The notes under the pieces: generated by a model | The model's input: the letters and a program-made list of their open reading frames with translations, nothing else | Database searches by the model: none | What the model was told of the DNA's origin: nothing | From: Candidatus Collierbacteria bacterium | GTDB lineage: Bacteria; Patescibacteriota; Microgenomatia; UBA1400; JACPES01 | NCBI GenBank assembly: GCA_016183365.1 | Contig: JACPES010000002.1 | Span: 12,779-76,778, forward strand | Length of the DNA: 64,000 nt | Reading direction: 5' to 3' | Shown here: positions 3,031 to 56,274 of the stretch, one piece after another | Position numbering within the stretch: the first letter of the stretch is position 1 | Layout: each line of letters begins with the position of its first letter | Position numbers and translations under genes: made by a program

Positions 3031-3039
3031 TATAAGATT

Positions 3040-3200: not shown

Positions 3201-3204
3201 ACAG

Positions 3205-4858: not shown

Positions 4859-4861
4859 TAT

Positions 4862-5560
4862 TTATTCAAGCCGGAGTTTTTTGGTCAATAGTTCGCTTCT
4901 CGGCAGGCAGATCCCAAGCTTGGTATACTCCCAAAATTCATTTTTGTTATTCAGAAGCGACATGACTGGTTCGGTATTTATCCATGGTTCGGGATGGTTT
5001 AAATATGATGACAGGCTACTCCACTGATATTTAGGCAAGTTTTGTTCATTCCATCTAGAAAATTCGCCATTGGCGGGGTTTACGTGAACATAGCGAACGG
5101 CTTGAAGTAATTGTTCATCATGAATAATGGCAACGGATTTGTATTTAGATTCAAATAGTCGTCCTTTGCGTTTTTCGACTTTATTGAAGTACATGGTAAA
5201 GGCTGTTCCCAGTCTTTGCATAAATTTAGCTATGGCAGTTTTCTTATCTTCAGATTCTCCCAAAACTAAATGGAAATGATTATTCATCAATATTAAGGCT
5301 ACAATATCCAAAATCGGAGGCCCGAATTCTTCCTCGGCTTTGCCAATCTTTTCCGGCGTAATTTTATCTCGTTTTAGCCAATCATCAAGTACCGCGATAG
5401 AAGGGGATTTTAACAATCTGGACAGTCTCAAAGTGGTAATAAACCGCCGGCGGTGGTTATCGTTCAGGAAAATCACTCGTTTATCAACTCCGCGATTATA
5501 AACATGAGAAAAGAACCTAACCGGAGTCATCGGAGTCATAATCAATATAACAATATCCAA
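4862..5560 (-). CDS. IS200-like Y1 tyrosine transposase (RAYT-like) flanked by REP copies
   Basis: HVYNRGVDKRVIF ... NNHFHLVL ... GRLFESKYKSVAIIHDEQLLQAVRYVHVNP. Paralog of 633-1355. Confidence 0.8.
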   Translation of the reverse strand: MDIVILIMTPMTPVRFFSHVYNRGVDKRVIFLNDNHRRRFITTLRLSRLLKSPSIAVLDDWLKRDKITPEKIGKAEEEFGPPILDIVALILMNNHFHLVLGESEDKKTAIAKFMQRLGTAFTMYFNKVEKRKGRLFESKYKSVAIIHDEQLLQAVRYVHVNPANGEFSRWNEQNLPKYQWSSLSSYLNHPEPWINTEPVMSLLNNKNEFWEYTKLGICLPRSELLTKKLRLE

Positions 5561-5632
5561 AATATAAACTTTTTACAACCCCATCGAGATATCCATTGTT
5601 GCGACCGTCCCCGCTACTAAAAAGGGTCTATA

Positions 5633-5690
5633 TATCAATTAATTGAAGGTCTGACCTTCAATGTAGCCATGTATCAATGATTATTATTTA
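5633..5690. repeat. REP-like palindromic element, second copy flanking the RAYT gene
   Basis: atcaattaattgaaggtctgaccttcaatgtagccatgtatcaatga. Confidence 0.75.
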
Positions 5691-9378: not shown

Positions 9379-9857
9379 GAAACTTGTGATTTCTTGAAAA
9401 ACAACATTCATTAGCCAAACAATCAACAGAATTGAGAAGTTAATGATGACGCTTAGCGTCAAGGCTTCGGAAAGCGAAGAAATTATAATTAATAACGGTG
9501 AATCCGTGGTTAATGCCATATTAACGCCGGAAAAATAAAAACCGATTCCGGTTATAATTCCCAAAATTATAAGAGGTAGGGTGTGTTTGATATCTACCCA
9601 ACTTGGAAATAGAGAATTTGCAACCGTAAAAAATAAATATAGCTTGAATAAATCTGAAATCTGAAAATTCGAGTGTGGATGAAATCCACACGAGCGGTCC
9701 TAACCCGCTGTCTGCCCCCAAACCTGCCGACCAATCTTCCCAGCTCCGCCGTCATTTTCTGCCGTGTCAGGTACAAAAGTCTCAATCCCGCCAAGCTTAA
9801 TCCAATTTCTTTCACCATCAAAGAATACAGCAAAGTTAAGGAAAAGTTTTACCCACT

Positions 9858-9974
9858 TTATTCCAAGATAGCGAAAACCATGACCGTGAGACTATGGATG
9901 AAGCGATACAGATAGCCGCGGAGCGCACAGTGCGGAACAAAAAACCATGTGAATTGGCGCATGGTTTTTTTATA
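9858..9974. repeat. about 118-bp direct repeat, copy 1 (gene 3' end fragment plus terminator-like hairpin)
   Basis: Nearly identical to 11149-11266. It ends in aaaaaaccatgtgaattggcgcatggttttttt. Confidence 0.7.
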
Positions 9975-10229
9975 TTTTCCTACAGGTAAAGAGCAAAATC
10001 AACCACCTTGAACAGAATCGCAGTTTCCTCCATTTTCGCTAAACCATAATATCCGACTAGCAATGGTTCTTCGATTTTGCATACCCGTCTGGCTTTGCCT
10101 GAAGAGTCGACTTCAGTTCTAAACTGAAATAATCCTGTTCTCGTTTCAGCCATATAGTGAATATTTTATCCAGTATCCTGACAAAGTTTTTCTATCTTGA
10201 CGATTCGGTTTTCTATCAGTTATTATAAA

Positions 10230-10261
10230 TTCCAATTAATTAATCAATTAATTAATTGGAA
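10230..10261. promoter_or_regulatory. 32-nt near-perfect palindrome immediately upstream of the TrpR/YerC-like gene; putative operator
   Basis: ttccaattaattaatcaattaattaattggaa, 7 nt before the ATG. A second copy lies at 10748-10779 just after the stop, and a third variant lies inside the CDS at 52004-52034. Confidence 0.45.
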
Positions 10262-10267
10262 TAAATT

Positions 10268-10720
10268 ATGGCCAGGGTGTCTCTGCGTTGGCTTCAGCCG
10301 GAAGTAGAGGATAAAATTTACCAGCTTTTAGTTGAATGTGTGGCTTCGTGCCGTGATCAAAACGCCGCCGGCAATTTCATCGATGTTCTTTTGACTAAAA
10401 CTGAAAAATTGATGATTGGCAAGCGGATTGCAATCGCCCTGATGCTGATTAAAAACCATATTCCGTCGGAAATAGACGAAAAACTTAAAGTTTCGCAGAC
10501 GACTGTTTATACGGTTAAAACTTGGCTTGATGAGAAAGGTAAAGAATATCGGCAGTTGCTTAAAGAAATTGCCGATCGGGATGAAAGCCAACAAAGGAAA
10601 TATCAAGATTTGCGCCAAGAAGCCGCAGGCGGTTTCCTACCTCCGCGGCCGGGGACAAACTGGAAGGAATTCAAACGCAGCCAATGGCAAAAAGCCAAAT
10701 CCGCCAAAGTTCCATTTTAG
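10268..10720 (+). CDS. TrpR/YerC-YecD-like HTH DNA-binding protein
   Basis: FIDVLLTKTEKLMIGKRIAIALMLIKNHIPSEIDEKLKVSQTTVYTVKTW resembles the Trp-repressor-like YerC/YecD family. Confidence 0.5.
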   Translation: MARVSLRWLQPEVEDKIYQLLVECVASCRDQNAAGNFIDVLLTKTEKLMIGKRIAIALMLIKNHIPSEIDEKLKVSQTTVYTVKTWLDEKGKEYRQLLKEIADRDESQQRKYQDLRQEAAGGFLPPRPGTNWKEFKRSQWQKAKSAKVPF

Positions 10721-10747
10721 TTATTCTATTATTTTTTTCTTTATAAA

Positions 10748-10779
10748 TTCCAATTAATTAATCAATTAATTAATTGGAA
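10748..10779. promoter_or_regulatory. second copy of the 32-nt palindrome, downstream of the TrpR-like gene
   Basis: Sequence identical to 10230-10261. Confidence 0.45.
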
Positions 10780-10933
10780 TAAACGAGTGAGAGATTTTTT
10801 AAGATTTCTTAATAGAAACCTGTATAATTCTTAAAAGTGAGAGCAGAGTAAAAATAGGGCTGTAGTGAAATGGCCCGCCCGCAAAAGCTGTCGCTTTAGC
10901 GATTGCAGGCAGGCATCACGAGGTCTAAATTCT

Positions 10934-11007
10934 AGGGCTGTGATGAAATGGTATCATGGGGGTCTCCAAAACCCCTCTTTCAGGTTCGAATCCTGACAGC
11001 CCTGCCC
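10934..11007 (+). tRNA. tRNA-Trp (anticodon CCA)
   Basis: Acceptor AGGGCTG/CAGCCCT; D stem ATGA/TCAT; anticodon stem GGGGT/ACCCC with loop CTCCAAA; T arm TCAGG-TTCGAAT-CCTGA. Confidence 0.8.
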
Positions 11008-11103
11008 AGGTACCATACGATACCTGGTGGCGAGTGCAGAATTGTACCTGCTAAGGCACCATTCGGAGCCTGGCTTCGCCAGAAGCAAAAGCAGAATGTG
11101 CCG

Positions 11104-11146
11104 CCAATTGAAGGTCTGACCTTCAATATAGCTTCATATCAAGTAA
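11104..11146. repeat. REP-like palindromic element, copy 3
   Basis: ccaattgaaggtctgaccttcaatatagcttcatatcaagtaa. Confidence 0.7.
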
Positions 11147-11148
11147 TT

Positions 11149-11266
11149 TTATTCCAAGATAGCGAAAACCATGACCGTGAGGCCATGGATGAAGCGATAC
11201 AGATAGCCGCGGAGCGCACAGTGCGGAGCAAAAAACCATGTGAGTTGGCGCATGGTTTTTTTATAG
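11149..11266. repeat. about 118-bp direct repeat, copy 2
   Basis: See 9858-9974. Confidence 0.7.
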
Positions 11267-11293
11267 AGTAATTTCTACTGGGCTAAAACAATT

Positions 11294-25860: not shown

Positions 25861-28032
25861 TCAATATTCGGAATTCAGTATTTTTATCGCTTCCGCGTAA
25901 TCCGGTTTCAATTCCAAGGCTTGGCGGTAAAGATTTTCGGCCTTGGATTTATCGTTCAATTCTCCATACATCCGGCCTAATAAATAGTATCCCCGGGGGT
26001 CGGTGGGGGATAAATCAACGGCTTTTTGAGCCAGTTTCAAGGCTTCATCAGTCAGATTTGGATCAATCTCCTTCATCAAAAATTCCATCTGGGTTTGAGT
26101 CCTGATAAAAGTCAAATTATATTTTGATTGGGCGGAAACGACTTTAAAATTTTTTACGGCTTCATTTTTTATCTCAACGGCGCGGGTTTCATTGTTGTTG
26201 GCCCAAGCCGAAATTGCGGCTACAGCCAATGATTCTGCCAGTTCGTTACGGAAAACCGGTTCATTGGGGGCTAAATTAACCGCTTGAGAGAGTGGTTCTA
26301 AGGCTTCCGGAATATATCCGGCTGAATAATATTGTCGGCCGAGATTGTATTTAAGATCAGCCTGAAACCGATTAAATATTCCGGAAATTACCCCAAAAGT
26401 AATAATGGCTATGATTGTTAGTAAAAAATACTTCCACCATAGCAATTTTATAAAGGAGTCTCCTTTAAGGATCTTCCCTTCTGTCGTGAAGACAACTGTC
26501 AAGCTCATAAATAAATATCTATAAGTCTCGGTGGTAACTGTGGAGAAACCGAAAAAGTTGACGGTTTCAACCCCGAGCAGGGCCGCCAGAATTGCGACAA
26601 GAACGTCATTGCGAGGAGTCCCGCCTTTGGCGGGACGACGTGGCAATCCCGATGGGATCGCCACGCTTCGCCCGTCAGACTGGCTTGCTCGCGATGACCT
26701 AACTATCCAAACTCCAAACCATCCCAACAACAGTAAATGTGTCCCTAATCCAAACAATCCCGTATTCGCCGCCAAATTCAGCCATTCATTATGAGCCTTG
26801 TTATATAAAAAATTCCATTCCGAGGTTTGGTTTGCTTCTTTGTGCCGGACTTGCCAGTAGGTCAGGCCGAAAGTCTCCGGTCCGGTTCCAAAAATTGGAT
26901 TCCTCTTGGCAATTTCCCAAGCTCCGTTCCAAACTATGCGGCGGATATCTCCGGATTCGGTGCCGCCTAGCTCCGACTTGCGGAGATTAATTGCTAATTG
27001 TTGATTGCTAATTACTGATTGTTCAGATTGATTTTTTACCAGCTGAATTGTTTTGAAAAACCAATCTCTGGCGGGATTATTAGTGATGAAAACCAAAATC
27101 AAGATGATTGAATGAATAAAAACAAAGGATTTGAGATTTTTGCTTTTTGCTTTTTGTTTATTGTTTATTGCGAACACGGTGAGCCAAAACACAACATCCA
27201 TTACTGCAAAACCAAGAAGTCCCGAGCGGGATTTTGTGAAGAGGAGGGCAGTAAAAAAAACAAAAAACAAAAAACAAAAAACAATCATATTTTTATTACC
27301 GTTCTTTGCTTTTTGCTCTTTGCTTTTTGTCATGAGCATCCATGTAAGCGGGATGATCATGACGAGGAACCCCGCTAGCCAGTTCGGCTGTCCCTGGGTA
27401 GAAAAAACTCGGGTTGCGACGTCCTGAATCCAGAAATCGCGGTCAATCCCGAAATGTTGAAAGATGGCGTAAAGGCTGACGATAGTGGCGGAAGAGAGAA
27501 TAGCAAATATCGGAACACTCGGAATACTCCGAAAACCAGAAAAATCAGAGAATCGGAGATTCAGAGAGCCCGAAGCTCCGGTCTTCTGATTATCAGATTT
27601 TCTGACCTTTCGGCTCTCCGAGTTTTCCGAGTTTTCCGAAATATTCGCCACAAATGCGTAATACAGCACCGTATAGCTAATCGTGCTCACAAGCCCTCCG
27701 TTAAATCTTCCGTACCAGCCAAACCACGAAATATGATGATCTATACTATATATAGTACTGACAACCTGTGACAGTAAAAATAGCAGAATGGGAATATCCA
27801 GCGGGGTCCAGCGCAAAATAATCCGGCCCGCCAAAATCATTCTTATTGTCCAGACGGCTATTATCAGTGTAGTCATTAAATACACAAACAGCATTTTGGG
27901 AAATTCAAACACTTCGCTGCTTGGAATCCAAAAGATTAAGGGCAAAAAGAAAAATAAAGTTATAAACAGGGCGCGAATGGTTAGTTGCAGGGTTCTATCA
28001 AGCCGGATAAACATTAAGTTTGATTTTAGCAA
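25861..28032 (-). CDS. O-antigen ligase/Wzy-like polytopic membrane protein with C-terminal TPR repeats
   Basis: Many TM helices, a Wzy_C-like region (NGAWEIAKRNPIFGTGPETFG) and C-terminal TPR repeats (GYYLLGRMYGELNDKSKAENLYRQALELKP). It carries several inserted repeat elements. Confidence 0.55.
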   Translation of the reverse strand: MLKSNLMFIRLDRTLQLTIRALFITLFFFLPLIFWIPSSEVFEFPKMLFVYLMTTLIIAVWTIRMILAGRIILRWTPLDIPILLFLLSQVVSTIYSIDHHISWFGWYGRFNGGLVSTISYTVLYYAFVANISENSENSESRKVRKSDNQKTGASGSLNLRFSDFSGFRSIPSVPIFAILSSATIVSLYAIFQHFGIDRDFWIQDVATRVFSTQGQPNWLAGFLVMIIPLTWMLMTKSKEQKAKNGNKNMIVFCFLFFVFFTALLFTKSRSGLLGFAVMDVVFWLTVFAINNKQKAKSKNLKSFVFIHSIILILVFITNNPARDWFFKTIQLVKNQSEQSVISNQQLAINLRKSELGGTESGDIRRIVWNGAWEIAKRNPIFGTGPETFGLTYWQVRHKEANQTSEWNFLYNKAHNEWLNLAANTGLFGLGTHLLLLGWFGVWIVRSSRASQSDGRSVAIPSGLPRRPAKGGTPRNDVLVAILAALLGVETVNFFGFSTVTTETYRYLFMSLTVVFTTEGKILKGDSFIKLLWWKYFLLTIIAIITFGVISGIFNRFQADLKYNLGRQYYSAGYIPEALEPLSQAVNLAPNEPVFRNELAESLAVAAISAWANNNETRAVEIKNEAVKNFKVVSAQSKYNLTFIRTQTQMEFLMKEIDPNLTDEALKLAQKAVDLSPTDPRGYYLLGRMYGELNDKSKAENLYRQALELKPDYAEAIKILNSEY

Positions 28033-32262: not shown

Positions 32263-32686
32263 TATTTTTTTGTTGGCGCTGACTTTTATAATCTCCGGGG
32301 CAGAACCATTTTTGGGATCATTTAGTCTGGCTGCCATTTGGGCGGCGGCGCTGGGAGTAAAAAAACAGGATATTCTCGGGGCATTGTTGACATTTATATT
32401 AGGTTTGGTTCGGGATATACTATTGATTAATAGATTGGGACAATCGTCAATTATTTTATTGGCAGTTTGGACTTTAGCCGGAATAATATCTTCCAAATTG
32501 TCAAAAAATTTATTTTCAGTTGCAGTCTCGGCCTTTGGTGGATATTTAATCTTAAGTTTAGTAGAAATAGGGACGATCAATATTTGGGGGACGTTAATTA
32601 CGGTTATAATATCAATATTAATTGTTGAAATTTGGACGCTGAAAGATTCCCGCGAATCGGGAATTAAAGTCAGATTGTCTTCATGA
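32222..32686 (+). CDS. mreD: rod-shape-determining protein MreD (putative)
   Basis: Small polytopic membrane protein between mreC and mrdA. Confidence 0.5.
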   Translation: MPALTLFFSYQMNNIFLLALTFIISGAEPFLGSFSLAAIWAAALGVKKQDILGALLTFILGLVRDILLINRLGQSSIILLAVWTLAGIISSKLSKNLFSVAVSAFGGYLILSLVEIGTINIWGTLITVIISILIVEIWTLKDSRESGIKVRLSS

Positions 32687-34446
32687 AGTTTGGACCGTTG
32701 GAATTATCAATCGCTGATAGAAAACAAAATTTTTTGCCGCTGGGAATAATGGTCGTAATTATGATGTCCGCAGTGGGTATAATTTTGGCCAGACTGACGG
32801 AATTGACGGTTTTTCGCGGAGGAGAATTAAGGCGCCGGGCGGACGAAAACAGGATTTTGGTTAGGGTGGTCCCGGCTCCCCGGGGAATAATTTTTGATAA
32901 AAATGGAAAGGCATTGACTCGGAATACTCCGGATGGCAGAGCCTATCCATTTGACCGGAATTTTTCTCACTTGACCGGATATATCGGCGAAGCTTCAGAG
33001 GAAGAAATTAAAAGCGATTCATCTCTAAACCCTGGTAATATTTTAGGAAAAACCGGATTGGAAAAGCAATACGATAAGGAGTTGCGCGGAATCGATGGAG
33101 CTGAATTGATTGAAGTGGATGCAAATGGCAATTTACTTGAGGTTTTAGAGGATCAATTACCACAGGCGGGAAAAGATATTTATACTTATTTAGATGTGGA
33201 TTTACAAGTTGCCATGACTGAAAATTTAGGGGGAAGAAAAGGGGCGGCTGTGGCAATTGATCCGGTGGATGGCTCAGTTTTGGGATTGGTTTCCAGTCCG
33301 TCGTATGACCCGAATATATTTCAGAAAACTCTGAATACAATCATTCCGGAAAACTCAGAAAACTCGGATGGCCGGAAAGTCGGAATGTCAGAAAATCAGA
33401 AAGTCGGACCCTCTGGTTCTCCGAGTTCTCCGAGTGTTCTGGACTTATTGAATGACACCGTCAATATGCCATTATTTAACCGCGCCATTTCCGGCGAATA
33501 TCCGCCGGGATCTATTTTTAAATTGGTGACGGCGGCAGCGGGATTGTCAGAAAATAAAATTAACCGCCAAACTTTAGTTAGGGATACCGGTGAGATCAGA
33601 GTCGGAGACTTTAGATTCGGCAATTGGTATTTTGATCAGTATGGAAAAACCGAAGGCGAAATCGGAGTGGTCAGGGCTTTAACCAGAAGCAACGATATTT
33701 TTTTCTATAAAGTCGGGGAATGGTTGGGGCCGGATCTATTAGCAGGATGGGCTAAAAAAATGAAACTGGGTAAAAAAACAGGTATTGATTTATCCGGAGA
33801 AGCCGATGGTTTGGTTCCTGACCCTAAATGGAGGGAAAAGGCTACAGGTGAAAGATGGTTCTTGGGAAATACTTATCATATGGCCATCGGTCAGGGTGAT
33901 GTTCAATTGACTCCATTGCAGGCGGCGGTGATGACCAGTACGGTGATTACCGGCAAACGCTGTACGCCGCGGATTAAACAATTAACAATCAGCAATCAGC
34001 AATCAGCAATTTCTTGTGAAGATACAGGAGTTTCTAAAAGTAACCGCAATTTAATTCTTGAAGGAATGGTGGGATCCTGCAGTCCGGGCGGGGTGACCTT
34101 TCCGTTTTTCCCTTGGAATCAATCCATTGAAGGTCAGACCTTCAATGAAGCCATACATCAATCAAACGGTATGAGCGGTTATCCGGCTGTGGCGTGTAAA
34201 ACTGGCACGGCCCAGCATGGTGGAAAACAGACTAAACCGCACGCGTGGATTGTAGTCGCTGCCCCAATTATTGAAAGCCAACCATCAGTAAAATCAGCAA
34301 TTAGCAATTCTTCTTATCAACTCGATTTAGACTCTCCCAAACGAATAATTTTAGTCGTTCTTGTCGAAGATGCCGGCGAGGGCTCCTACGAAGCCGCTCC
34401 TGTGGCCAAAAAGATTTTGGAAAAATGGTTTGAAACCAATAAATAA
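32683..34446 (+). CDS. mrdA: penicillin-binding protein 2 (peptidoglycan transpeptidase) with three in-frame repeat insertions
   Basis: AAVAIDPVDGSVLGLVSSPSYDPN ... SIFKLVTAAAGL (SxxK) ... KTGTAQ. Insertions at 33347-33440, 33978-34012 and 34126-34164. Confidence 0.85.
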   Translation: MKFGPLELSIADRKQNFLPLGIMVVIMMSAVGIILARLTELTVFRGGELRRRADENRILVRVVPAPRGIIFDKNGKALTRNTPDGRAYPFDRNFSHLTGYIGEASEEEIKSDSSLNPGNILGKTGLEKQYDKELRGIDGAELIEVDANGNLLEVLEDQLPQAGKDIYTYLDVDLQVAMTENLGGRKGAAVAIDPVDGSVLGLVSSPSYDPNIFQKTLNTIIPENSENSDGRKVGMSENQKVGPSGSPSSPSVLDLLNDTVNMPLFNRAISGEYPPGSIFKLVTAAAGLSENKINRQTLVRDTGEIRVGDFRFGNWYFDQYGKTEGEIGVVRALTRSNDIFFYKVGEWLGPDLLAGWAKKMKLGKKTGIDLSGEADGLVPDPKWREKATGERWFLGNTYHMAIGQGDVQLTPLQAAVMTSTVITGKRCTPRIKQLTISNQQSAISCEDTGVSKSNRNLILEGMVGSCSPGGVTFPFFPWNQSIEGQTFNEAIHQSNGMSGYPAVACKTGTAQHGGKQTKPHAWIVVAAPIIESQPSVKSAISNSSYQLDLDSPKRIILVVLVEDAGEGSYEAAPVAKKILEKWFETNK

Positions 34447-39235: not shown

Positions 39236-39961
39236 ATGTTTAAGCGTTTATTTGGAGGACACCGGAACAAAGTTTACAAAACTAACGGATTTGTGAAGGT
39301 CATATGGAAAGATGGTTTTAGAAGACAAAACCAAATCCGCGAGGGGGTTAGCTTAGAAAATTTTGTGGCGACTCATATAGATATTAAAGCCCGGATGTTA
39401 GTTGACAAGTCTAAGCCGGTTGAAGAAGAAGACGGGGGATTGGTAACCTATTTTCATTACGCCGAAGGCGAGATCCGCTATCCATGGAATTTGGATGAAA
39501 TTGCTTCGGCGGCGAAATTGCTTACTAGGTTTCATCAGCATTTAAAGGCCTGGCCTTCGCCGCGGGGGCCAGGCCTTATCAGACAACTCCATCTGGATTT
39601 TGCCCGCGGCAACGTACTATTTCAGCCCGGATCCTCGAACGCTATCGGCGTCATCGACTTCGAAACCACAGCCATTGGTCCGGTTGAACAAGATCTCGGC
39701 CGCACCCTAAGCTTTATTTTAGTTGATTCGCCCATTAATTTAAATAGGGAAGATCCTTTAAGGAGTATCCTTCAAGGATCTTCCTTTTTTGAGAGATGGA
39801 ACACCTTATTGACAAATTACTCTCTGACATTTAGAAAAGACAAGGTGATAAACTGGACCTTGCGGTACTTGACCGACGAAGACTACGGGAGTTTAAACTA
39901 CATAAGAGATAAAGCAATTTCATGGCTGCATGACAGTGTTGTTAACAATTTAACAATTTAG
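39236..39961 (+). CDS. phosphotransferase (APH/choline-kinase-like) family protein
   Basis: HLDFARGNVLF ... GVIDFETTAIGPVEQDL is the Brenner kinase motif. Contains the ggagtatccttcaaggatc repeat in frame. Confidence 0.45.
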   Translation: MFKRLFGGHRNKVYKTNGFVKVIWKDGFRRQNQIREGVSLENFVATHIDIKARMLVDKSKPVEEEDGGLVTYFHYAEGEIRYPWNLDEIASAAKLLTRFHQHLKAWPSPRGPGLIRQLHLDFARGNVLFQPGSSNAIGVIDFETTAIGPVEQDLGRTLSFILVDSPINLNREDPLRSILQGSSFFERWNTLLTNYSLTFRKDKVINWTLRYLTDEDYGSLNYIRDKAISWLHDSVVNNLTI

Positions 39962-41158: not shown

Positions 41159-41668
41159 ATGACAGATATTGAATTAATGCGCCGGGCGGCCGAAATTGCC
41201 GGAAATACCAAATGCTGGATCGGAATCGGATGCGTGATTGCTAAAGACGGACAGATTATTTCAGAGGCTTGGAATGAAACGTTGAAAGGGGAGGAATACT
41301 GTCTGAAATTTCGAAATCGTGAAGTCAAAAAAGGCCCGCTCCCGCTCGGCGAGGCCGGGCCTTATCAAAACAGAGGCTGCGTTCGCCATGATCTAGGACT
41401 TTCACAAGGAAAAGAAATCGAAAAAGCTTGTTCCGTCCATGCCGAAGTTAACGTTATCTCCAAAGCCGCTCGGCAGGGTATTAAAGTCGAAGGCGCCACA
41501 ATGTTTGTAACTAGTTTTCCCTGTTTAATTTGCATGCGTTCCATTATCCCCGCCGGGATAAAAAAAGTAATATATATGAATGATTTTTATAAGCCGCACC
41601 ATTTAGAATTATTTAAAAAAAACAGAGTTGAAGTTAAACAAATTCCTGAAAATATAGTTTGGAAATAG
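41159..41668 (+). CDS. dCMP / deoxycytidylate deaminase
   Basis: CSVHAEVNVI ... SFPCLICMRSI are the zinc-binding HAE and PCxxC motifs. Confidence 0.8.
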   Translation: MTDIELMRRAAEIAGNTKCWIGIGCVIAKDGQIISEAWNETLKGEEYCLKFRNREVKKGPLPLGEAGPYQNRGCVRHDLGLSQGKEIEKACSVHAEVNVISKAARQGIKVEGATMFVTSFPCLICMRSIIPAGIKKVIYMNDFYKPHHLELFKKNRVEVKQIPENIVWK

Positions 41669-47599: not shown

Positions 47600-48496
47600 A
47601 TGATTATCGATGGGAAAAAATTAGCGGCCGAAAGAGAAAAGAAACTAGCGGGAGAAGTTAGCTTGCTTACGAAAAAAATCGGCCGTCGGCCAAAACTTCT
47701 GGCGGTGGAATTAGCCGATGATGAGGGGAGCAGGTTGTATCTTAAATTAAAGCGAAAAGCGGCAGAAAGGTTGGGAATAGAATTTGAAGTTATAAAAAGG
47801 CCAGGCCTTTCCGGGAAAGGCCTGGCCTTTTTGACTGGTTTTGATATAGATGGGGTGTTTGTTCAGCATCCCAGGGGTTATGACAAACAAAAATGGCAGG
47901 AATTGGTCGATCAAATCCCGCCGGAAAAAGATGTTGATTGTTTGACCAGTGAAAATCTTCAATTGATTAAAGACGGCAAGCCAAGATTTTTGCCGGCTAC
48001 CGTTAAGGCTGTTGGCTACGTCATTCTGAGCGTAGTGAAGGATCCCGTCGGGCCTAATCCTAAATGGGATTCTTCAGTCGTTTCACTCCTTCAGAATGAC
48101 GGGTTATTAAGGCATTTCCTTCTCAACAAGCACGTCGTCATTCTCGGTCGCAGTCCGATTCTTGGTTTACCCCTCTTCTGGTGGTTCAATAGTTTTGGCG
48201 GGAAAGTGACTCTGTTGCATTCGCAAACAAAAAACAAAAAACAAAAAACAAAAAACTCCGATATTCTTATTTCTTCCGTCGGCAAACCCGGAATTATCAT
48301 CGGCAAAATGGTGAAAGAGGGAGCGATTGTCGTTGATTGCGGTTCGCCTTCGGGCGACGTAGCCTTCGGCGAAGTCGCCCCCAAAGCTTCTGCCATCACC
48401 CCGGTCCCCGGCGGCGTCGGCCCCTTAACCGTGGTAAGTTTGATGGAAAATGTGGTAAAATCGGCAAAAGACACATATGCCAAAAAAAGACGATAA
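47600..48496 (+). CDS. folD: bifunctional methylene-THF dehydrogenase/cyclohydrolase FolD with three in-frame repeat insertions
   Basis: MIIDGKKLAAEREKKLAGEV ... LLAVELADDEGSRLYLKLKRKAAERLGIEFEV ... C-terminal GGVGPLTVVSLMENV. Confidence 0.8.
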   Translation: MIIDGKKLAAEREKKLAGEVSLLTKKIGRRPKLLAVELADDEGSRLYLKLKRKAAERLGIEFEVIKRPGLSGKGLAFLTGFDIDGVFVQHPRGYDKQKWQELVDQIPPEKDVDCLTSENLQLIKDGKPRFLPATVKAVGYVILSVVKDPVGPNPKWDSSVVSLLQNDGLLRHFLLNKHVVILGRSPILGLPLFWWFNSFGGKVTLLHSQTKNKKQKTKNSDILISSVGKPGIIIGKMVKEGAIVVDCGSPSGDVAFGEVAPKASAITPVPGGVGPLTVVSLMENVVKSAKDTYAKKRR

Positions 48497-49235
48497 ACCC
48501 TTGATTGGTGTTTCTTTAGAAGAATTGCTGGAAGCCGGATGCCATTTTGGCCATCAGGCTCGCCGCTGGCATCCTAAAATGGCTCCGTATATTTGGGGCA
48601 AAAAAGACGGAATCCATATTTTCGATCTGGATAAAACCAGACAAGCCATATTCGAAGCAATAGATATGGTCAAAAAAATAGCCGCGGAAGGGAAATTAAT
48701 TATTTTTGTCGGAACTAAAAAACAAGCCTCGCAGATTATTACAGAAGAAGCAATTAGAGCCGGAATGCCGTTTGTGGCCAAACGTTGGTTGGGCGGAACT
48801 TTAACCAACTGGAAGCAGCTTAAATTGAGCGTTAATAAATTAATAGATCTTAAGATAAAACGCGAAGCGAAAGAATTGGATAAATACACCAAGAAGGAAA
48901 GAGTTTTAATCGACAAACAGATTGAAAGGCTGGAAAAATTTGTCGGCGGTCTGCAGCAATTGACAATTTTGCCGGCTGCCATATTTGTAGTTGATATCAG
49001 AAGAGAAGACGCGGCGGTTAGAGAAGCCCATATATTGAAAATTCCGGTGATAGCTATTGTCGACTCCAATTGCGACCCGGAAATGATAACTAAAGTAATT
49101 CCCGGAAATGATGATGCCATTGGGACGATTAGATTAATCACTTCCAAAATTACCGATGCGGTGTTGGAGGGGAAAAAACAAAGAGCAAAAAACAATGAAC
49201 AAGAAACAAGAAACAATGAACATAAAACAAATTAA
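48477..49235 (+). CDS. rpsB: 30S ribosomal protein S2
   Basis: LEAGCHFGHQARRWHPKMAPYIWGKKDGIHIFDLDKT. Confidence 0.9.
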   Translation: MPKKDDKPLIGVSLEELLEAGCHFGHQARRWHPKMAPYIWGKKDGIHIFDLDKTRQAIFEAIDMVKKIAAEGKLIIFVGTKKQASQIITEEAIRAGMPFVAKRWLGGTLTNWKQLKLSVNKLIDLKIKREAKELDKYTKKERVLIDKQIERLEKFVGGLQQLTILPAAIFVVDIRREDAAVREAHILKIPVIAIVDSNCDPEMITKVIPGNDDAIGTIRLITSKITDAVLEGKKQRAKNNEQETRNNEHKTN

Positions 49236-49662
49236 AACTCTTCGTGAGCAAACCGGTGTAGGCGTGATGGACGCCAGAAAAGCTTTGGAGGAAAGTCATG
49301 GGGATATAAAAAGAGCCGGAGAGTGGCTTAAAAAAAATGCCGTCGCCAAAGCGCTTAAAAAAGCAGATAGGGTTACCGGCGACGGAGCGATTTTTTCCTA
49401 TATCCACCAAACCGGGAAAATTGCCTCATTGATAAAGTTGGCCTGCGAAACTGATTTTGTGGCCAAAACAGACGATTTTCAGAAGTTAGGCAAAGAACTG
49501 GCGATGCAGGTAGCCTCGATGAATCCGAAAGATATTGCTGGTCTTTATTGTCAAGATTGGATCAGGGATAATAAAAAAAATATTAAGCAATTAATTGATG
49601 AAGTGATTACTAGGTTGGGAGAGAATATTAAAATACTAGAGATTGCGAGAATGAAAATTTAA
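49216..49662 (+). CDS. tsf: elongation factor Ts (short form)
   Basis: MNIKQIKTLREQTGVGVMDARKALEESHGDIKRAGEWL. The start is ambiguous, lying at 49156, 49195 or 49216, within an A5C-type repeat shared with the rpsB 3' end. Confidence 0.75.
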   Translation: MNIKQIKTLREQTGVGVMDARKALEESHGDIKRAGEWLKKNAVAKALKKADRVTGDGAIFSYIHQTGKIASLIKLACETDFVAKTDDFQKLGKELAMQVASMNPKDIAGLYCQDWIRDNKKNIKQLIDEVITRLGENIKILEIARMKI

Positions 49663-50311: not shown

Positions 50312-51364
50312 TTAAAGAGACCTTGATAATTTTCTGATATTTTCAATTCCCCAGTTTATCCAGTATTTCCAAGACAATGGCAAATCGTGAGCCGGAAAAT
50401 AAGAAAATTGTCCGCCTCCGAAGCCGCGTTTAAAAAGCGATGGTCCGGCAAAACGGTGTGCCGGCTGGTACATCGCGAAGCGGTGAGTCCGCCAGCAGGC
50501 GGATAATTTATCGTCCTCAACATCTCCCCACAAATTATAAGTTTTCATCCCTAGTTTTTTGGCTTCCTGAATTATCGCCCATTGGATCGCGTAGGCCGCC
50601 GGAGTTTTTCTGGCTTCATCACCGGAGGCAGCGTAATGATAAACTGCCTCTTTGCGGCAGAAGATTGCAATTGCCATCGATAAAATTCTTGATAAGGCCT
50701 GGCCTTCCCGGGGAAGGCCAGGCCTTTTAACATAAAAAAATTTCACCGCGTTCTCGTTTTTAAACGCTTTGAACTGTTCCGAGAGAAACTTTCTTGAAAA
50801 CGGCACAAAACCTTCTCGTTTTGCCGTCTTTGTCTGAAGCCTAATGAAATCATCTATTAAACTTTCGTCTTGCGATTTTTCGACTATTATTCCCATCTTC
50901 CCTGCTTTCTTAATCTCATATCTGGTTGATTTCCGCATTTGTCTTAAAAGTTCATCATCGGATAGAGATAAATCCAGAATTCTGGTTAATTGGGCGTGAA
51001 GATGCATCGGGGCGGGACGGAATCCGTTTTGTTTGATAACAGAGGCCAGGGCGTCGGAGTTCCCGGCTTGGGGGCGGATTCTGACGAAAGAACATTTTTC
51101 TTTTAAGGCTATTTCTTTCATCAGCGAAACCGCTTGTTTCCATTGAGAAGAAGAAAAATAATCTTTTAATAATGGTCCGCCCGGAACTGTTAAATACCGG
51201 CCTCTTTTAGCCGGTTCAACGATGATCTGAAACATGCCTTGATCAAAACTGATTCTATAAACAGGGTGATTTAATTTTAAGTGAAATTCTCCCCAGGCCC
51301 AAGATTGCAGAAAGTTGGCTTCCGGGAATTTATCGAGATTATTCTCCCAATCTTGTTTAGTCAT
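50312..51364 (-). CDS. FemAB-family (FemX-like aminoacyltransferase) protein
   Basis: Two GNAT-like halves with a FemAB-like YHYAASGDEARKTPAAYAIQWAIIQEAKKLGMKTYNLWG region. Lies next to cell-wall genes. Confidence 0.55.
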   Translation of the reverse strand: MTKQDWENNLDKFPEANFLQSWAWGEFHLKLNHPVYRISFDQGMFQIIVEPAKRGRYLTVPGGPLLKDYFSSSQWKQAVSLMKEIALKEKCSFVRIRPQAGNSDALASVIKQNGFRPAPMHLHAQLTRILDLSLSDDELLRQMRKSTRYEIKKAGKMGIIVEKSQDESLIDDFIRLQTKTAKREGFVPFSRKFLSEQFKAFKNENAVKFFYVKRPGLPREGQALSRILSMAIAIFCRKEAVYHYAASGDEARKTPAAYAIQWAIIQEAKKLGMKTYNLWGDVEDDKLSACWRTHRFAMYQPAHRFAGPSLFKRGFGGGQFSYFPAHDLPLSWKYWINWGIENIRKLSRSL

Positions 51365-51376: not shown

Positions 51377-52732
51377 CTATTGTAAAAAGGCCAGGCCTTT
51401 ATGATACTTTATGATATAGTTTGTTCTTTTTGAGTACTTGTTAATCAATTCAGCCAAAATTTTTGCTTTATTCTGATCGATATTTATATGTGTCGGCAGA
51501 TTTAAAATATGCAGGCTTAAATTTTCGGCGTTGCGACAAGAGCCAAGTCGGTATTTGACTCGAGAATTATCAACCCACTTGGGAGATACAGGCGCGTCAT
51601 ACCAGTGATCCATAAGATAAAAACCGTGTTTGGTCAATTTTTTTTCCAATTCATCGCGGTTGCCTACCCAAACCGGGTAGCGTAAATTAGAACCATTTTT
51701 AATATCAAGAGCAATTATCAACTTGAGCCTTTTATAAATAACATGATCATAAATTAAGGCAATATTCCGGCGGTGGACAATAATTTTCTCTAACTTGCTT
51801 AGTTGGTTTAGGATCAATGCGGCCAGAGCGTTTGGCAGGGAAGTGAGTTTGTCAGGCGCGTCTAGAGAAGAGGGGAGAAGGTCTAATTCTTTGCCGACAA
51901 AATGGATTATTTTTCCCAATCCAATATTGTAAGTTTGCCGTATCGTCGAAGTCAGCAGGGGATAGAAAAGACTTTTTGTAATATTAATTTTACTCCAATT
52001 AATTAATTGATTAATTGATTGGAATGATTGGCGATGAGATTTGAGTGATGAAATTAATGCCCCTCCGGAGACGCCGTCGATAACTTTGTCTTGGGAGAAG
52101 GAAAGAATGATGGCGTCGGGACAAATGGGATGATTAAGAGTGTTAAGAGTGTTAGGATGGTGAAGTAGATTATTGTCATCATAACCATCGTAATCATCTA
52201 ACCATCTAGCTTCAGCGCCGAGCGCGTGGGCGAGGTCTTGGATGACAATAATCTTGTGATTCCGGCACCAGTTTACGATTTGATCGTTTTCCCGGTTGAG
52301 ATATCCCAAGGTATGTTGGAGAATAAGGGCTTTAGTTTTGGGAGAAACTGATTTTTTTATTTGCGCCAAGGATGGATTGAGATTTTTGGGACCGACATCA
52401 ACGTAAATTGGAATAGCCCCTAAATCCAAAATCGGTTGAACCACGGCCACACAGGTAAAAGCTTGGACAATGACTTCGTCACCCTGTCCGATTTTAAGAA
52501 TTTTCAGGGCTTCATAAATTGCCTGCCTGCCTTTTAGAAACAACCGTATGCTGACATCATTGTTTCGCCCCGCCTCGGCGGGACGAAACTTCACAAACTT
52601 CGCAAGCAGTGTTTGCTCAAGCAAACTTGTTTCTTTACCCTTTAGCCATTTCCACGGTTGGAAAAGAAGTTTGATGGCTAAAGTTAGATCCGCGGACGAG
52701 TAGTTTGATCCCAGAGAGTTGGTGATAATCAC
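51377..52732 (-). CDS. DegT/DnrJ/EryC1/StrS-family PLP-dependent aminotransferase with in-frame palindromic insertions
   Basis: GDEVIVQAFTCVAVVQPILDLGAIPIYVDV resembles the DegT family (fold type I). Insertions near 52004-52034 and 52540-52620. Confidence 0.7.
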   Translation of the reverse strand: MIITNSLGSNYSSADLTLAIKLLFQPWKWLKGKETSLLEQTLLAKFVKFRPAEAGRNNDVSIRLFLKGRQAIYEALKILKIGQGDEVIVQAFTCVAVVQPILDLGAIPIYVDVGPKNLNPSLAQIKKSVSPKTKALILQHTLGYLNRENDQIVNWCRNHKIIVIQDLAHALGAEARWLDDYDGYDDNNLLHHPNTLNTLNHPICPDAIILSFSQDKVIDGVSGGALISSLKSHRQSFQSINQLINWSKINITKSLFYPLLTSTIRQTYNIGLGKIIHFVGKELDLLPSSLDAPDKLTSLPNALAALILNQLSKLEKIIVHRRNIALIYDHVIYKRLKLIIALDIKNGSNLRYPVWVGNRDELEKKLTKHGFYLMDHWYDAPVSPKWVDNSRVKYRLGSCRNAENLSLHILNLPTHINIDQNKAKILAELINKYSKRTNYIIKYHKGLAFLQ

Positions 52733-53622: not shown

Positions 53623-55062
53623 TTATTTAAATAATTGAAGTTTTTGAAATGCTAGGCGTTTTTTATCCCAGAATTTTCCGCGGCGGCAGAGATTAGAGAT
53701 ATCCGATTTGTTTTCTAGCAGCGTCTCGACCACGATCTCTAAAAAAATCGTGTTTTGAGATCCCTTGACTAAGATTATTTCTCCGCCGGAGATAAATTCG
53801 TGCTTCTCAATTATGGAGATTTGTCTGGCAGAGCCGGATCTCGCTCCGCGAGACGATCCTGCCAATAAAAACTTGGCCGCTTCTCCGGCAGTCAAAAACC
53901 ATTCGACCGGCAGTTTCGACTGTTTGATTATCGGTAGAGCGTATTGTTTCATCAATGGTCCGACGAGGACTATTTTATCCGCGGTTTTCACCGCTACCTC
54001 AGCTATTTTTTCGTGTTCTATTTTAGCCTGCGAACCCAGTTCGCGCATGTCCCCCAAAACCGCGATTTTGGTTTTATTTCCTCCAATATTTTGAAGCATT
54101 TTCAGACTGCCGATTACCGTTTCCCGCGAGGCGTTATAAGAAGAATCAATGATGGCGGTATTTTTAATTCCCGGAAAAATCCAACCGCGCCCCGATGGTA
54201 GTTTGAATCCTGCCGAGATTTTTTCGGCTATGGCTTGAGGATCTTGACCCAAACAAATTCCGGTGGCGAAAGCCGCCGATAAAGTGAATCCGTAAAATTC
54301 CGGCAAAATCATATTTTTTAATGAAATTTGATATTCCCGTTGTTTAAATGAAAGTAATACCTCTGTTTGAGAAAGCGAAGGAATAACGTTTAAAATTTTA
54401 ACATCGGCTGCCGGCGATTTTCCAAAGGTTAAAGTTCTTGCTCCAGCTGATTTCGGTTTCAGTGAATTTATTTCCGGTTGATCGGCGTTTAAAATAGCCC
54501 ATTGCAAATTTTGATTTTCGGTTATAAGTTTTCCCTTCTCTGCGGCGATGGACTCTATTAAGGTCAGACATTTCCGTACGACCAGGTCTGACCTTTCAAA
54601 CTGTTCTGTATGTACCGGCAAAACGTTTAAAATTACAGCTATATCCGGTTTTAAGATTGTCAGCAAATAGCCCATGTTTTTGGGCGAAGTCGGTTCGTCG
54701 ATGCCCATTTCGACGAGATAACAATCGAAAGAATTGCTAATTGCTGATTGCTGATTGTTAATTGTTTTAATAGCTTGAATTGGCGCCAATGCGAGGATGC
54801 GTAGCCAGTCAAAAATAGGATGAACCGACTCGCCGAAATGAAGGCCGAGAATGTCGGCCGGAATGCCGGATTCGGAATTGGCTTTTTCGGCAACTTTAAG
54901 ATTTTTAAATTTTAGTTTTAATACCGGCGCGATTGCGTCTATGGCGCTGGATTTTCCGGCCGAACCGGTGATTCCGACAATAAAAGGATTGCTTTTCTTA
55001 AGCGCAAACAAGGCCCAAAATCTAAGCCACCATAAAATCGGCCAACGAAAAATGCGTTTCAT
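53623..55062 (-). CDS. murF: Mur ligase family protein (MurF-like UDP-MurNAc-peptide D-Ala-D-Ala ligase)
   Basis: IVGITGSAGKSS P-loop ... NSESGIPADILGL. Carries an in-frame NQQSAIS repeat insertion. Confidence 0.65.
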   Translation of the reverse strand: MKRIFRWPILWWLRFWALFALKKSNPFIVGITGSAGKSSAIDAIAPVLKLKFKNLKVAEKANSESGIPADILGLHFGESVHPIFDWLRILALAPIQAIKTINNQQSAISNSFDCYLVEMGIDEPTSPKNMGYLLTILKPDIAVILNVLPVHTEQFERSDLVVRKCLTLIESIAAEKGKLITENQNLQWAILNADQPEINSLKPKSAGARTLTFGKSPAADVKILNVIPSLSQTEVLLSFKQREYQISLKNMILPEFYGFTLSAAFATGICLGQDPQAIAEKISAGFKLPSGRGWIFPGIKNTAIIDSSYNASRETVIGSLKMLQNIGGNKTKIAVLGDMRELGSQAKIEHEKIAEVAVKTADKIVLVGPLMKQYALPIIKQSKLPVEWFLTAGEAAKFLLAGSSRGARSGSARQISIIEKHEFISGGEIILVKGSQNTIFLEIVVETLLENKSDISNLCRRGKFWDKKRLAFQKLQLFK

Positions 55063-55152: not shown

Positions 55153-56274
55153 GTGTTGACTGTTTTGTTTTTTTTAATTCTGCTTTCGGTTCTGGTTTTA
55201 GTCCATGAACTGGGGCATTTTATCGCCGCCAAGAAATTGGGAGTAGTGGCGGAAGAGTTTGGTTTGGGTTTGCCGCCCAAAGTCAGGCGGCTTTTTGTCT
55301 GGCAGGGGACGGAATTTACCCTCAACTGGCTGCCGCTGGGTGGGTTTGTGAAGATGAGAGGGGAAGATCGGGAAATAAAAGACAATGAGCAAAAAACAAT
55401 GAGCAAAGAACAAAAAGCAAAAAACAAAGAGCAAGGATTTTTCTTTGCGCAACCGCCATGGAAGCGGGCGGTGATTTTGGTGGCCGGGGTATTTATGAAC
55501 TTGGTTTTGGGAGTGGCGGCATTTACCTCGGTTTATACCGTCTTGGGAATTCCGGAAGAAAGAGACGTGGTGGTTATCGACGGAGTGGCGCCAAATAGCC
55601 CGGCGGAGCGGGCACAACTAAATCAAAACGATGTTGTGAACGAGTTCAAAGTTCAAAGTTCAAAGTTCAAAGTTAACGACACCAAGCAATTCATAGAATT
55701 AATTAATCAGCATCGAGGGGAGGAAGTCACGCTCATTATTAAGCGTGGACAAGAGGAAAAAGAAATTGTTGTTACTCCGCGACTTGAATCCGAAACTCCA
55801 GAAGGCGAGGGAGCGCTGGGGGTGGCGATTTCCAATATCCAGTTTATCCACTATCCCCGGTGGCAGATGCCGTTTAGGGCGTCCGTGACTGGGTTTAAGG
55901 AAGCTTTGGCATGGGGACGGAATATTATCGGGGGTTTGGGGAAAATGGTTTTCGATCTGGCGACTCACGGCAAAGTCCCGAATGATTTGGCCGGGCCGGT
56001 GGGAATCGCCAAAATTACCGGCGAAGTGGCCAAGAGAGGTTGGATTCCGCTTTTCCAATTGGCCGGAATTTTATCAATCAATTTAGCGGTGGTTAATATC
56101 CTGCCGATTCCGGCTCTGGACGGCGGCAGGTTGCTGTTTTTAGGGATCGAAAAACTGAGAGGAAAGCCGATGGATCCGAAGAAAGAACGTTTGGCCCATC
56201 TGATCGGCTATACATTGCTAATCTCTCTTTTAATTTTGATTACCATCAAAGATTTAATCGGCGGAGTCGGATAA
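55153..56274 (+). CDS. rseP: RIP metalloprotease RseP (site-2 protease with PDZ domain)
   Basis: HELGHFIAAKKLGV ... PDZ region ... NLAVVNILPIPALDGGRLLF. Confidence 0.8.
   Translation: MLTVLFFLILLSVLVLVHELGHFIAAKKLGVVAEEFGLGLPPKVRRLFVWQGTEFTLNWLPLGGFVKMRGEDREIKDNEQKTMSKEQKAKNKEQGFFFAQPPWKRAVILVAGVFMNLVLGVAAFTSVYTVLGIPEERDVVVIDGVAPNSPAERAQLNQNDVVNEFKVQSSKFKVNDTKQFIELINQHRGEEVTLIIKRGQEEKEIVVTPRLESETPEGEGALGVAISNIQFIHYPRWQMPFRASVTGFKEALAWGRNIIGGLGKMVFDLATHGKVPNDLAGPVGIAKITGEVAKRGWIPLFQLAGILSINLAVVNILPIPALDGGRLLFLGIEKLRGKPMDPKKERLAHLIGYTLLISLLILITIKDLIGGVG

Follow-up and report, generated by a model that had tools for sequence, protein, structure and literature searches.

Repetitive extragenic palindromic (REP) sequences and the REP-associated tyrosine transposases (RAYTs) that accompany them form an established bacterial system (PMC2817692, PMC5581495, PMC6006769), in which inverted REPs are described on the two sides of a RAYT gene (PMC2817692). 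Palindromic repeats that are translated within genes are also known, as Rickettsia palindromic elements (RPEs; Ogata et al. 2000, cited in the review PMC10969869) and as the GTAG and CGTC REPs that lie within genes of Opitutus terrae, Thauera and other bacteria (Di Nocera et al. 2013, PMC3733652). Here we describe a related case in a 64,000-nucleotide stretch of a Candidatus Collierbacteria genome (contig JACPES010000002.1; hereafter the window), in which a hairpin repeat lies in frame inside mrdA, the gene for penicillin-binding protein 2 (PBP2), and further copies flank a Y1/HUH transposase-like gene, RAYT2. We consider it probable that the mrdA segment is a copy of a hairpin family of about 53 nt, cognate to the single-copy, vertically inherited RAYT2, that landed in the gene and was tolerated there.

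The host gene, its insert and the hairpin within it are located as follows.
32683 to 34446, plus strand: mrdA, encoding PBP2, a class B transpeptidase; intact, 587 amino acids, with Pfam PBP_dimer and Transpeptidase domains.
34120 to 34164, plus strand: in-frame insert of 45 nt in mrdA, CAATCCATTGAAGGTCAGACCTTCAATGAAGCCATACATCAATCA, delimited by comparing filled and empty orthologous sites.
34126 to 34146, plus strand: core hairpin of this insert (copy 4 of the repeat), with a 9-bp stem and the loop CAG.

The mrdA segment is a genuine in-frame insertion of the repeat that flanks RAYT2, because empty orthologous sites stand against a 45-nt, stop-free insert in six genomes. The filled site, present in the window and in five orthologs whose PBP2 is 66–76% identical overall to that of the window (L023, L041, L042, L043 and L044), reads TGG AAT, the 45 nt, and then AAC GGT ATG AGC GGT TAT CCG; the empty site (L037, L038 and L040) reads TGG AAT GAG GGT AAA ACT GAT TTT CCG. 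At the protein level, P0007, P0009 and P0010 read WNE-GKTDFP, and P0008 likewise lacks the segment. Conceptual translation of the insert gives QSIEGQTFNEAIHQS, residues 480–494 of PBP2 (15 amino acids), in a frame without stops, and the filled proteins carry EGQTFN or EGLTFN, the Q/L difference corresponding to the central W of the palindrome. The insert therefore shows the traits of an RPE-type insertion: presence and absence among orthologs, a length that is a multiple of three, no stop codon, and an intact host gene. This comparison of empty and filled orthologs supports the original prediction of a translated, in-frame repeat in mrdA. The circumstance named there as counting against it, a filled mrdA in genomes that lack other REPs, was not encountered: L011, a further repeat copy, and L041 both come from GCA_016219325.1, and L023 (filled mrdA) and L026 (a repeat copy) both come from contig ORJL010685742.1.

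PBP2 itself retains the hallmarks of its family. Its best Protein Data Bank (PDB) matches are MrdA chains, and the SxxK, SxN and KTG columns (S277, K280, S336 and K506-T507-G508) are invariant in the PBP2 alignment, A2. In the AlphaFold2 (AF2) model, which has a mean predicted local distance difference test score (pLDDT) of 77, residues 482–497 fall below 50 and directly precede the strand (502–510) that carries KTG. The model thus predicts that the insert occupies a loop tolerating extra residues, flanked by confident elements. Two further low-confidence segments, 220–249 and 436–441, coincide with other repeat-derived inserts. A phmmer search of the C-terminal fragment of PBP2 against the PDB returned no match, and the full-length alignments to PDB chains skip residues 423–553, the repeat-decorated region. 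More distant PBP2 orthologs carry unrelated, palindrome-like peptides at the same loop, for example KGLTFADAKVRPL, which matches the predicted coding of an L035-type palindrome doublet.

Three other copies of the repeat lie outside mrdA.
4803 to 4857, plus strand: copy 1, full-length, adjoining the RAYT2 stop codon; two nested inverted repeats set apart by a 6x6 bubble without complementarity.
5630 to 5685, plus strand: copy 2, 70 nt upstream of the RAYT2 open reading frame (ORF) start, in the same orientation as copy 1.
11095 to 11150, plus strand: copy 3, intergenic, 90 nt downstream of tRNA-Trp and adjoining a 118-nt duplicated segment.

The 19-nt palindrome TTGAAGGTCWGACCTTCAA at the core of the repeat has four exact matches in the window (4820–4838, 5643–5661, 11108–11126 and 34127–34145), against a chance expectation of 0.01; none of 100 shuffles reached four. 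The claim of four palindrome copies, one of them in mrdA, is thereby upheld, and no additional match appears in the 64-kb window at up to 3 mismatches. The wider 56-nt family spans 4807–4862, 5630–5685, 11095–11150 and 34114–34169, with identical orientation in all four. Copy 3 is syntenic with copies in L026 and L032. An ORF that covers it (10948–11271) was rejected as a gene; it overlaps tRNA-Trp (10933–11008) and has no Pfam match. The duplicated segment beside copy 3 is 97% identical between 9857–9974 and 11148–11265 and ends in a terminator-like hairpin, AAAAACCATGTGAGTTGGCGCATGGTTTTTTT; copy 3 adjoins the second duplicate, and the region between the two differs from L026, where about 3.3 kb is extra. 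An Rfam scan of the window recovered four tRNAs only, with no family matching either the element or the 118-nt duplicate.

Reconstructed with copies from related genomes, the complete unit of about 53 nt consists of two inverted repeats, one nested in the other, in the order TTGATATAT, a spacer of 6–7 nt, ATTGAAGGT-CWG-ACCTTCAAT, a second spacer of 6–7 nt, and ATATATCAA. The outer arms, TTGATATAT and ATATATCAA, form a 9-bp stem, and the inner arms, ATTGAAGGT and ACCTTCAAT, form another 9-bp stem closed by a 3-nt loop, yielding an AT-rich, two-tiered hairpin. The spacers are non-complementary and produce an asymmetric bubble (GGCTACA at the 5' side and TTRATTG at the 3' side of the coding strand), which is the sole source of polarity in an element whose core is a perfect palindrome. 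As single-stranded DNA, copy 1 folds at −12.1 kcal/mol (z −5.5), and none of 200 shuffles was as stable; the value for the mrdA copy is −10.1 kcal/mol (z −3.8). The remaining copies retain at least the inner 9-bp stem and 3-nt loop; folding energies across the copies range from −7.4 to −12.1 kcal/mol (z −2.4 to −5.5), giving the stable hairpin expected of a REP. The mrdA copy, which contains an exact TTGAAGGTCWGACCTTCAA match, lacks the left outer arm, so that its right arm ATACATCAA is unpaired and folding occurs at the inner stem. The tetranucleotide head that marks described REPs, GTAG or CGTC (PMC3733652), is lacking: GTAG stands 3' of the core only in the two RAYT2-flanking copies and L029, its place is taken elsewhere by GAAG, ATAG, TCGC, TTGG, GTTG or ATGG, and this position belongs to the variable bubble.

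These data bear directly on the proposal that the mrdA segment is native coding sequence, resembling the repeat by chance or serving as the source from which the repeats were copied out. Conservation of the segment at the protein level in six orthologs would fit such an origin, as would the differences in flanking codons between filled and empty alleles. Set against this are a 47-nt match at 91% identity that reaches past the palindrome, the four exact 19-mers where 0.01 were expected, three close orthologs that are empty while distant ones have unrelated sequence at the loop, the presence of the same element in unrelated genes and intergenic DNA of related genomes, and the variant palindromes at RAYT2 orthologs. 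We regard the native-coding proposal as close to refuted.

The window holds two Y1/HUH genes, RAYT2 and a paralog, RAYT1, each with its own palindromes.
4862 to 5560, minus strand: RAYT2, Y1/HUH transposase-like, assigned from Pfam Y1_Tnp, REP_Tyr_transpos, profile and synteny evidence.
633 to 1355, minus strand: RAYT1, Y1/HUH paralog with a Pfam Y1_Tnp match and its own palindrome family.
592 to 619, plus strand: RAYT1-type palindrome AAGGAGACTCCTT, downstream of RAYT1.
1366 to 1424, plus strand: two RAYT1-type palindromes, AAGGAGTCTCCTT, upstream of RAYT1.

RAYT1 and RAYT2 share 35% identity (BLASTP E = 3e-28). The true start of RAYT2 is likely the Met at 5530, which gives a protein of 222 amino acids; P0121 has the same length and is 100% identical across 96% of the RAYT2 ORF. 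Against Pfam Y1_Tnp (cutoff 23 bits), RAYT1 passes at 39.3 bits and RAYT2 fails at 20.8 bits, and the two proteins score 43.1 and 43.0 bits against the NCBIfam model NF047646, REP_Tyr_transpos, whose cutoff is 80. In an alignment of 26 homologs that includes both window proteins (A3), H95, H97, Y157 and N161 (RAYT2 numbering) are invariant; the HuH motif of RAYT2 is NHFH, its catalytic-Tyr motif is RYVHVNP, and the Tyr pattern shared by the alignment is RYxHxNP. Single-protein phmmer searches of the PDB with RAYT1 or RAYT2 gave nothing useful. A profile built from the 26 homologs matched ISDra2 TnpA at E = 0.002, placing HuH and Tyr in register with it, and also matched the E. coli TnpA-REP structure 4ER8 at E = 0.007. 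The expectation that both Y1 proteins keep catalytic HuH and Tyr residues is thus confirmed by this register and by the alignment, and their absence, named beforehand as a reason to abandon the claim, was not observed. Of the motifs described for RAYTs (PMC2817692), NP(L/V)(R/K)xG is partly matched, with NP present (RYIHLNPVSGS in RAYT1 and RYVHVNPANGE in RAYT2), and the conserved N-terminal Thr is missing from the corresponding block, H-(V/I)-Y-N-R-G. Judged from their sequences, the two proteins keep the catalytic residues yet are distant relatives of characterised RAYTs.

Copies 1 and 2 lie on either side of the Y1 gene at 4862–5560, as had been proposed, and this pairing recurs elsewhere. 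RAYT2 orthologs that are 54–85% identical occur in four other assemblies (L033, L034, L035 and L036), and a palindrome with the centre AAGGTYWRACCTT is found on both flanks of the gene in L034, L035 and L036 and on the downstream flank in L033. These flanking palindromes vary (TCCAAGGTTAGACCTTGGA in L034, CAAAGGTCTGACCTTTG in L035 and GTAAAGGTCTAACCTTTAC in L036), and the changes in their outer stems are compensatory: TTGAAGG/CCTTCAA, TCCAAGG/CCTTGGA, CAAAGG/CCTTTG and GTAAAGG/CCTTTAC. The gene also keeps its place, lying between secE and an NTP-transferase gene in the window and in L034, with the secE side seen in L033 and the NTP-transferase side in L035. RAYT1, in turn, has a separate palindrome family, AAGGAGWCTCCTT, with five copies, three of which flank RAYT1; the implication that one REP family serves both RAYT-like genes has to be given up. 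Because ortholog flanks with compensatory stems, a conserved locus and a separate RAYT1 palindrome coincide, the repeat is best regarded as cognate to RAYT2. The gene shows the cognate repeat on both flanks that is expected of a RAYT and, within the 64 kb of the source genome covered, a single copy, vertical inheritance and co-evolution with its repeat. The RAYT2 locus accordingly looks like a domesticated, vertically inherited RAYT (PMC5581495) rather than an insertion sequence (IS).

The main competitor for the locus itself is that RAYT2 and its same-orientation ends constitute an IS of the IS200/IS605 type, mobile now or recently, the solo copies being leftover or miniature ends. The flanking copies are direct, as the two ends (left and right) of IS200/IS605 elements are, the best PDB profile match is ISDra2 TnpA, and many close RAYT2 homologs sit on contigs of 0.85–2.5 kb, as is often so for repeated elements; these short contigs are low-coverage Logan and ENA assemblies, which makes them weak evidence for an IS. 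RAYT1 with its palindromes (window 589–1459) is also absent from the homologous L033 site (10246–10405), where neighbouring gene order is equal. Retention of the secE-adjacent RAYT2 locus at 54–85% protein identity (L033, L034 and L035) does not suit a mobile unit, nor does the co-divergence of the flanking palindromes with the RAYT2 protein. In addition, the window holds one copy of each paralog, only 35% identical, rather than a mobile multi-copy unit, and the Tyr motif RYxHxNP has the NP beside Tyr that Nunvar et al. describe as peculiar to RAYTs (PMC2817692). We therefore consider the IS alternative very unlikely for RAYT2, while the RAYT1 paralog is possibly mobile, given its presence in the window and absence in L033. 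The L033 site that lacks RAYT1 holds a different GC-rich palindromic repeat, GTCATTGCGAGGAG….

The two Y1 genes bracket a ribosomal-protein cluster, as originally described, and a rearrangement mediated by RAYTs had been considered on that basis. The bracketing stands, but there is no sign of such a rearrangement: the order is standard, and L033 shares it without RAYT1. The window reads secE-nusG-rplK-(110-aa ORF)-rplJ-rplL, which is the ordinary arrangement. Where rplA would be expected, between rplK and rplJ (2441–3204, minus strand), there is only the 110-amino-acid ORF at 2698–3030, without a Pfam match at E ≤ 1. This ORF was rejected as rplA; no Pfam L1 match appears even at that threshold, and to the eye alone it may recall L1 domain I, with both ends of L1 present and the middle domain missing. 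The label rplKAJL consequently needs correction, as no rplA is recognisable between rplK and rplJ. The region holding the ORF is conserved in L033.

The insert is conserved well beyond the level of the encoded peptide. Among the six filled genomes, pairwise identity at third codon positions is 0.95 in the insert and 0.62–0.65 in the rest of mrdA, adjacent codons included. Degenerate codons with an invariant amino acid are also codon-invariant in 11/11 cases in the insert and in 71/228 elsewhere (Fisher p = 4.9e-6), and the insert ranks first for conservation among 342 15-codon windows of mrdA. Variants of the core are limited to the hairpin loop (CAG, CTG or CTA), and the right arm ATACATCAA, unpaired in mrdA, is as invariant as the core. 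Such conservation argues against a passively decaying relic. Because the synonymous sites are far more conserved than the surrounding gene, the insert would have been kept either by selection on the nucleic-acid hairpin or by gene conversion with other copies, two processes that these data do not separate.

Functional selection of the mrdA hairpin is in our judgement possible but doubtful; the hairpin might be a site that a RAYT binds or nicks, a point at which replication or transcription pauses, part of an mRNA structure that affects PBP2 expression, or a recombination hotspot. Such selection would account for synonymous sites that are the most conserved of the whole gene across six diverged genomes while next-door codons diverge normally, for core variation confined to the loop, and for a sharp similarity breakpoint between L044 and L038 at the insert's left edge. 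The same conservation pattern, however, would arise if other copies converted this one ectopically, and a recombination tract is expected to stop at a 45-nt heterology even if nothing special acts there. With the left outer arm missing in mrdA, a model based on structure alone neither predicts nor explains the invariance of the unpaired right arm. Moreover, three related lineages manage without the mrdA insert. The wider proposition that the mrdA hairpin and the other envelope-gene repeat segments are maintained by nucleic-acid selection or by ongoing RAYT-dependent homogenisation seems to us unlikely. The roles that might be involved are recognition or nicking by a RAYT, or a structure in RNA or DNA; if true, a domesticated Y1 transposase and its repeats would actively shape protein loops and recombination boundaries in reduced genomes of the Candidate Phyla Radiation (CPR), instead of merely leaving decayed remnants.

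Insertion of the same element into other genes is evident from related genomes. In the representative genome that GTDB lists for Collierbacteria, an exact copy occurs once, within the gene for a GT39-type glycosyltransferase, where it is read as IEGLTFNRTIRQS, and mrdA holds a copy with one mismatch. An exact 19-mer scan of the GTDB representatives yielded 22 loci, all but one being isolated chance matches in unrelated phyla; a strict-pattern search of all JGI metagenomes yielded 11 loci, and 1–4 copies were detected per related assembly. The element is translated in a 736-amino-acid GT2+GT39 fusion glycosyltransferase (L011, L025 and L030) and in a 686-amino-acid membrane protein (L024, L027, L028 and L031), so that, together with PBP2, three unrelated genes carry it in translated form, as RPE-type elements do; the copy sites found away from RAYT flanks include three distinct ones within genes. 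The reading IEG(L/Q)TFN is common to PBP2 and the GT39-type glycosyltransferase, and the membrane protein reads LKVRPS in another frame, in which the loop base A is needed to avoid TGA. Of the six frames of the consensus element, a single one is stop-free, and every intragenic copy found uses a stop-free reading, as survivorship after insertion predicts. In the glycosyltransferase the insertion site is a variable loop between hydrophobic segments. GT39-type homologs P0183–P0193 have lineage-specific translated palindromes at the same inter-helix loop (KGPALPRQGRAL, QGLTLPRQGQTF, KGYSLPMQGVSL and KGPTLQQGRTL), which suggests that hairpin repeats have been captured there recurrently in Microgenomates lineages.

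Taken together, these results are accommodated by a model in which the enzymatic step is inferred from the analogous enzymes IS200/IS605 TnpA and E. coli TnpA-REP: RAYT2 would act on single-stranded DNA, recognising the hairpin in its folded form, cutting and rejoining next to it, and now and then seeding new copies of the repeat. One such copy would have landed in the PBP2 transpeptidase loop just before the KTG strand, where the insertion, its frame and its loop position are evident. It would have survived because 45 nt is a multiple of three, the sole stop-free frame is used and the loop is tolerant. The filled allele would be old, common to six species-level lineages and later shuffled by homologous recombination.

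Several points weigh against this model. Both Y1 proteins score under the NCBIfam RAYT cutoff, RAYT2 lies under the Pfam cutoff too, and their activity is a prediction from sequence. The RAYT2-flanking copies are in direct and not inverted orientation in the window and in L034, a departure from the inverted flanking REPs of RAYTs in which orientation is judged from the bubble alone. Copy number is low, at 4 in 64 kb and 1–4 detected per related assembly, with no sign there of the amplification to high numbers that typifies REPs. The conservation test concerns one 15-codon segment in six non-independent sequences. Filled alleles are non-monophyletic in the PBP2 tree (0/300 bootstraps), which we put down to recombination, repeated gain or loss being a less likely cause, and the mosaic patterns derive from contigs of metagenomes, some of them possibly chimeric. 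Finally, 9 of the 18 nt after the insert differ between empty and filled alleles, which means that the event was either not a clean 45-nt insertion into the present-day empty allele or very old. On abundance, REPs often exceed 100 copies per genome and are mostly extragenic; against that background, two of the four copies tallied in the 64 kb are RAYT flanks.

The allele history can be read from a pair of mosaic sequences. L044 (filled) and L038 (empty) are 96–99% identical over the 300 nt before the site, with 2 mismatches in the final 195 nt before the insertion point, and about 80% identical from that point onward; over another stretch, L044 is 100% identical to L023. Since the codons that follow the insert change together with the filled or empty state, a single old insertion is the history we prefer, with later homologous recombination whose conversion tracts would end at the 45-nt heterology. 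Many independent insertions were rejected as first choice on this co-variation and on the mosaic structure of the gene, and precise excision was rejected as the source of the empty alleles, given 9 differences between the two states in the 18 nt beyond the site.

Other repeats in the window are likewise read in frame, including two of the RAYT1 type.
26444 to 26480, plus strand: RAYT1-type palindrome in the Wzy_C/TPR gene (25861–28032, minus strand), in frame, EGKILKGDSFIKL.
39737 to 39787, plus strand: RAYT1-type palindrome with 1 mismatch in the APH-like gene (39236–39961, plus strand), in frame, NLNREDPLRSILQGSSF.
At least five repeat families other than the RAYT2-type element are read in frame, in Wzy_C, APH-like, Mur-ligase-like, DegT and PBP2 genes. 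The statement that REPs are normally extragenic, which made a translated copy look unusual, was therefore too strong; intragenic REPs are documented (PMC3733652, PMC10969869), and other families are in frame here.

PBP2 carries two of these other repeats. An 82-nt repeat links 33343–33424 in PBP2 with 27561–27642 in the Wzy_C/TPR gene on the minus strand; the two are 77% complementary on the genome and have the same sense in their genes, with the peptides PENSENSDGRKVGMSENQKVG in PBP2, where it corresponds to low-confidence residues 220–249 of the AF2 model, and SENSENSESRKVRKSDNQKTG in Wzy_C. A 36-nt AATCAGC-type repeat, 97% identical and in the same sense, is shared by 33976–34011 in PBP2 (KQLTISNQQSAI) and 54732–54767 in a Mur-ligase-like gene (53623–55062, minus strand; KTINNQQSAISNS). 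PBP2 orthologs contain translated A-rich periodic repeats, …ETDKLKTDKLITENREPKTDN…, and repeats of this kind (AAAACMR-like units, period 7–14) occur in the window at 3137–3198, 27087–27298, 48228–48271, 49159–49244 and 55363–55448, both between and within genes, for example in Wzy_C and FolD (47600–48496). A GC-rich palindrome family, AAGGCCTGGCCTT…AAGGCCAGGCCTT, occupies 39545–39586, 41331–41372 and 50694–50735; its first member falls within the APH-like gene, where its reading, KAWPSPRGPGLIRQ, is three residues longer than in the orthologs. Two perfect 43-nt AT-rich palindromic repeats (10223–10265 and 10741–10783) bracket a TrpR-like ORF (10268–10720), and a third copy, 95% identical, lies at 51989–52025 inside a DegT/DnrJ aminotransferase gene (51377–52732, minus strand), where it is read as SFQSINQLINWSK.

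These findings have consequences beyond the locus. REP/RAYT-like systems and translated palindromes are known mostly from Proteobacteria and Rickettsia, and the present case adds the CPR. The length variation and "disordered loops" of CPR envelope proteins (PBP2, Wzy-type and GT39-type) may be largely repeat-derived, which bears on annotation, structure prediction and orthology in CPR genomes. An intragenic hairpin conserved at the codon level in six diverged genomes also offers a natural case for asking whether REPs can be selected as nucleic acid while being translated. In the library searched, no paper connects RAYT or REPIN with Patescibacteria.

Among known systems, the REPtrons of Proteobacteria (E. 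coli TnpA-REP/YafM, 4ER8, with REP/BIME repeats) are alike in having a single-copy, vertically inherited Y1/HUH gene with HuH, Tyr and NP, cognate hairpins on both sides, co-evolving compensatory stems and extra scattered copies (PMC2817692, PMC5581495). In contrast to REPtrons, the Y1 protein here is very divergent (43 against 80 bits), has about 50 extra amino acids before HuH and carries HVYNRG in place of the conserved Thr, and the element has direct flanks, no GTAG/CGTC head, an AT-rich two-tier hairpin, low copy number and a CPR host. IS200/IS605 elements (IS608, ISDra2) resemble the locus in predicted Y1 HUH chemistry, in same-orientation subterminal hairpins and in the profile match to ISDra2 TnpA; the locus differs in its synteny, one copy per paralog, lack of tnpB and NP after Tyr (PMC2817692), and its Y1 proteins have about 220–240 amino acids against about 140. 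Miniature inverted-repeat transposable elements with in-frame fusions (Coxiella QMITE, ERIC/RU) are similarly small, non-autonomous repeats that add peptides to ORFs (PMC5896051, PMC2759123, PMC10969869), whereas the element here is a hairpin repeat with no identifiable target-site duplication.

The closest parallel to the mrdA insertion lies with RPEs and intragenic REPs, which are also in frame in unrelated housekeeping genes, translated into a conserved peptide, placed at fold-tolerant sites and found in a small-genome host. A relationship in sequence is not to be expected: RPE-1 is given as about 150 bp, whereas the element here has 45–53 nt and a cognate RAYT-like gene. Its targets are envelope genes (PBP2, the GT39-type glycosyltransferase and the large membrane protein), whereas Di Nocera et al. 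stressed replication and repair genes (PMC3733652). Strong synonymous-site conservation of an intragenic copy is not described in the sections of the RPE and intragenic-REP literature considered here. Translated intragenic palindromic repeats as such are already known, and this case is a divergent variant of them; what is new is the host lineage, the divergent protein, the direct flanks, the two-tier, AT-rich, headless hairpin, the low copy number, the envelope targets and the synonymous-site conservation.

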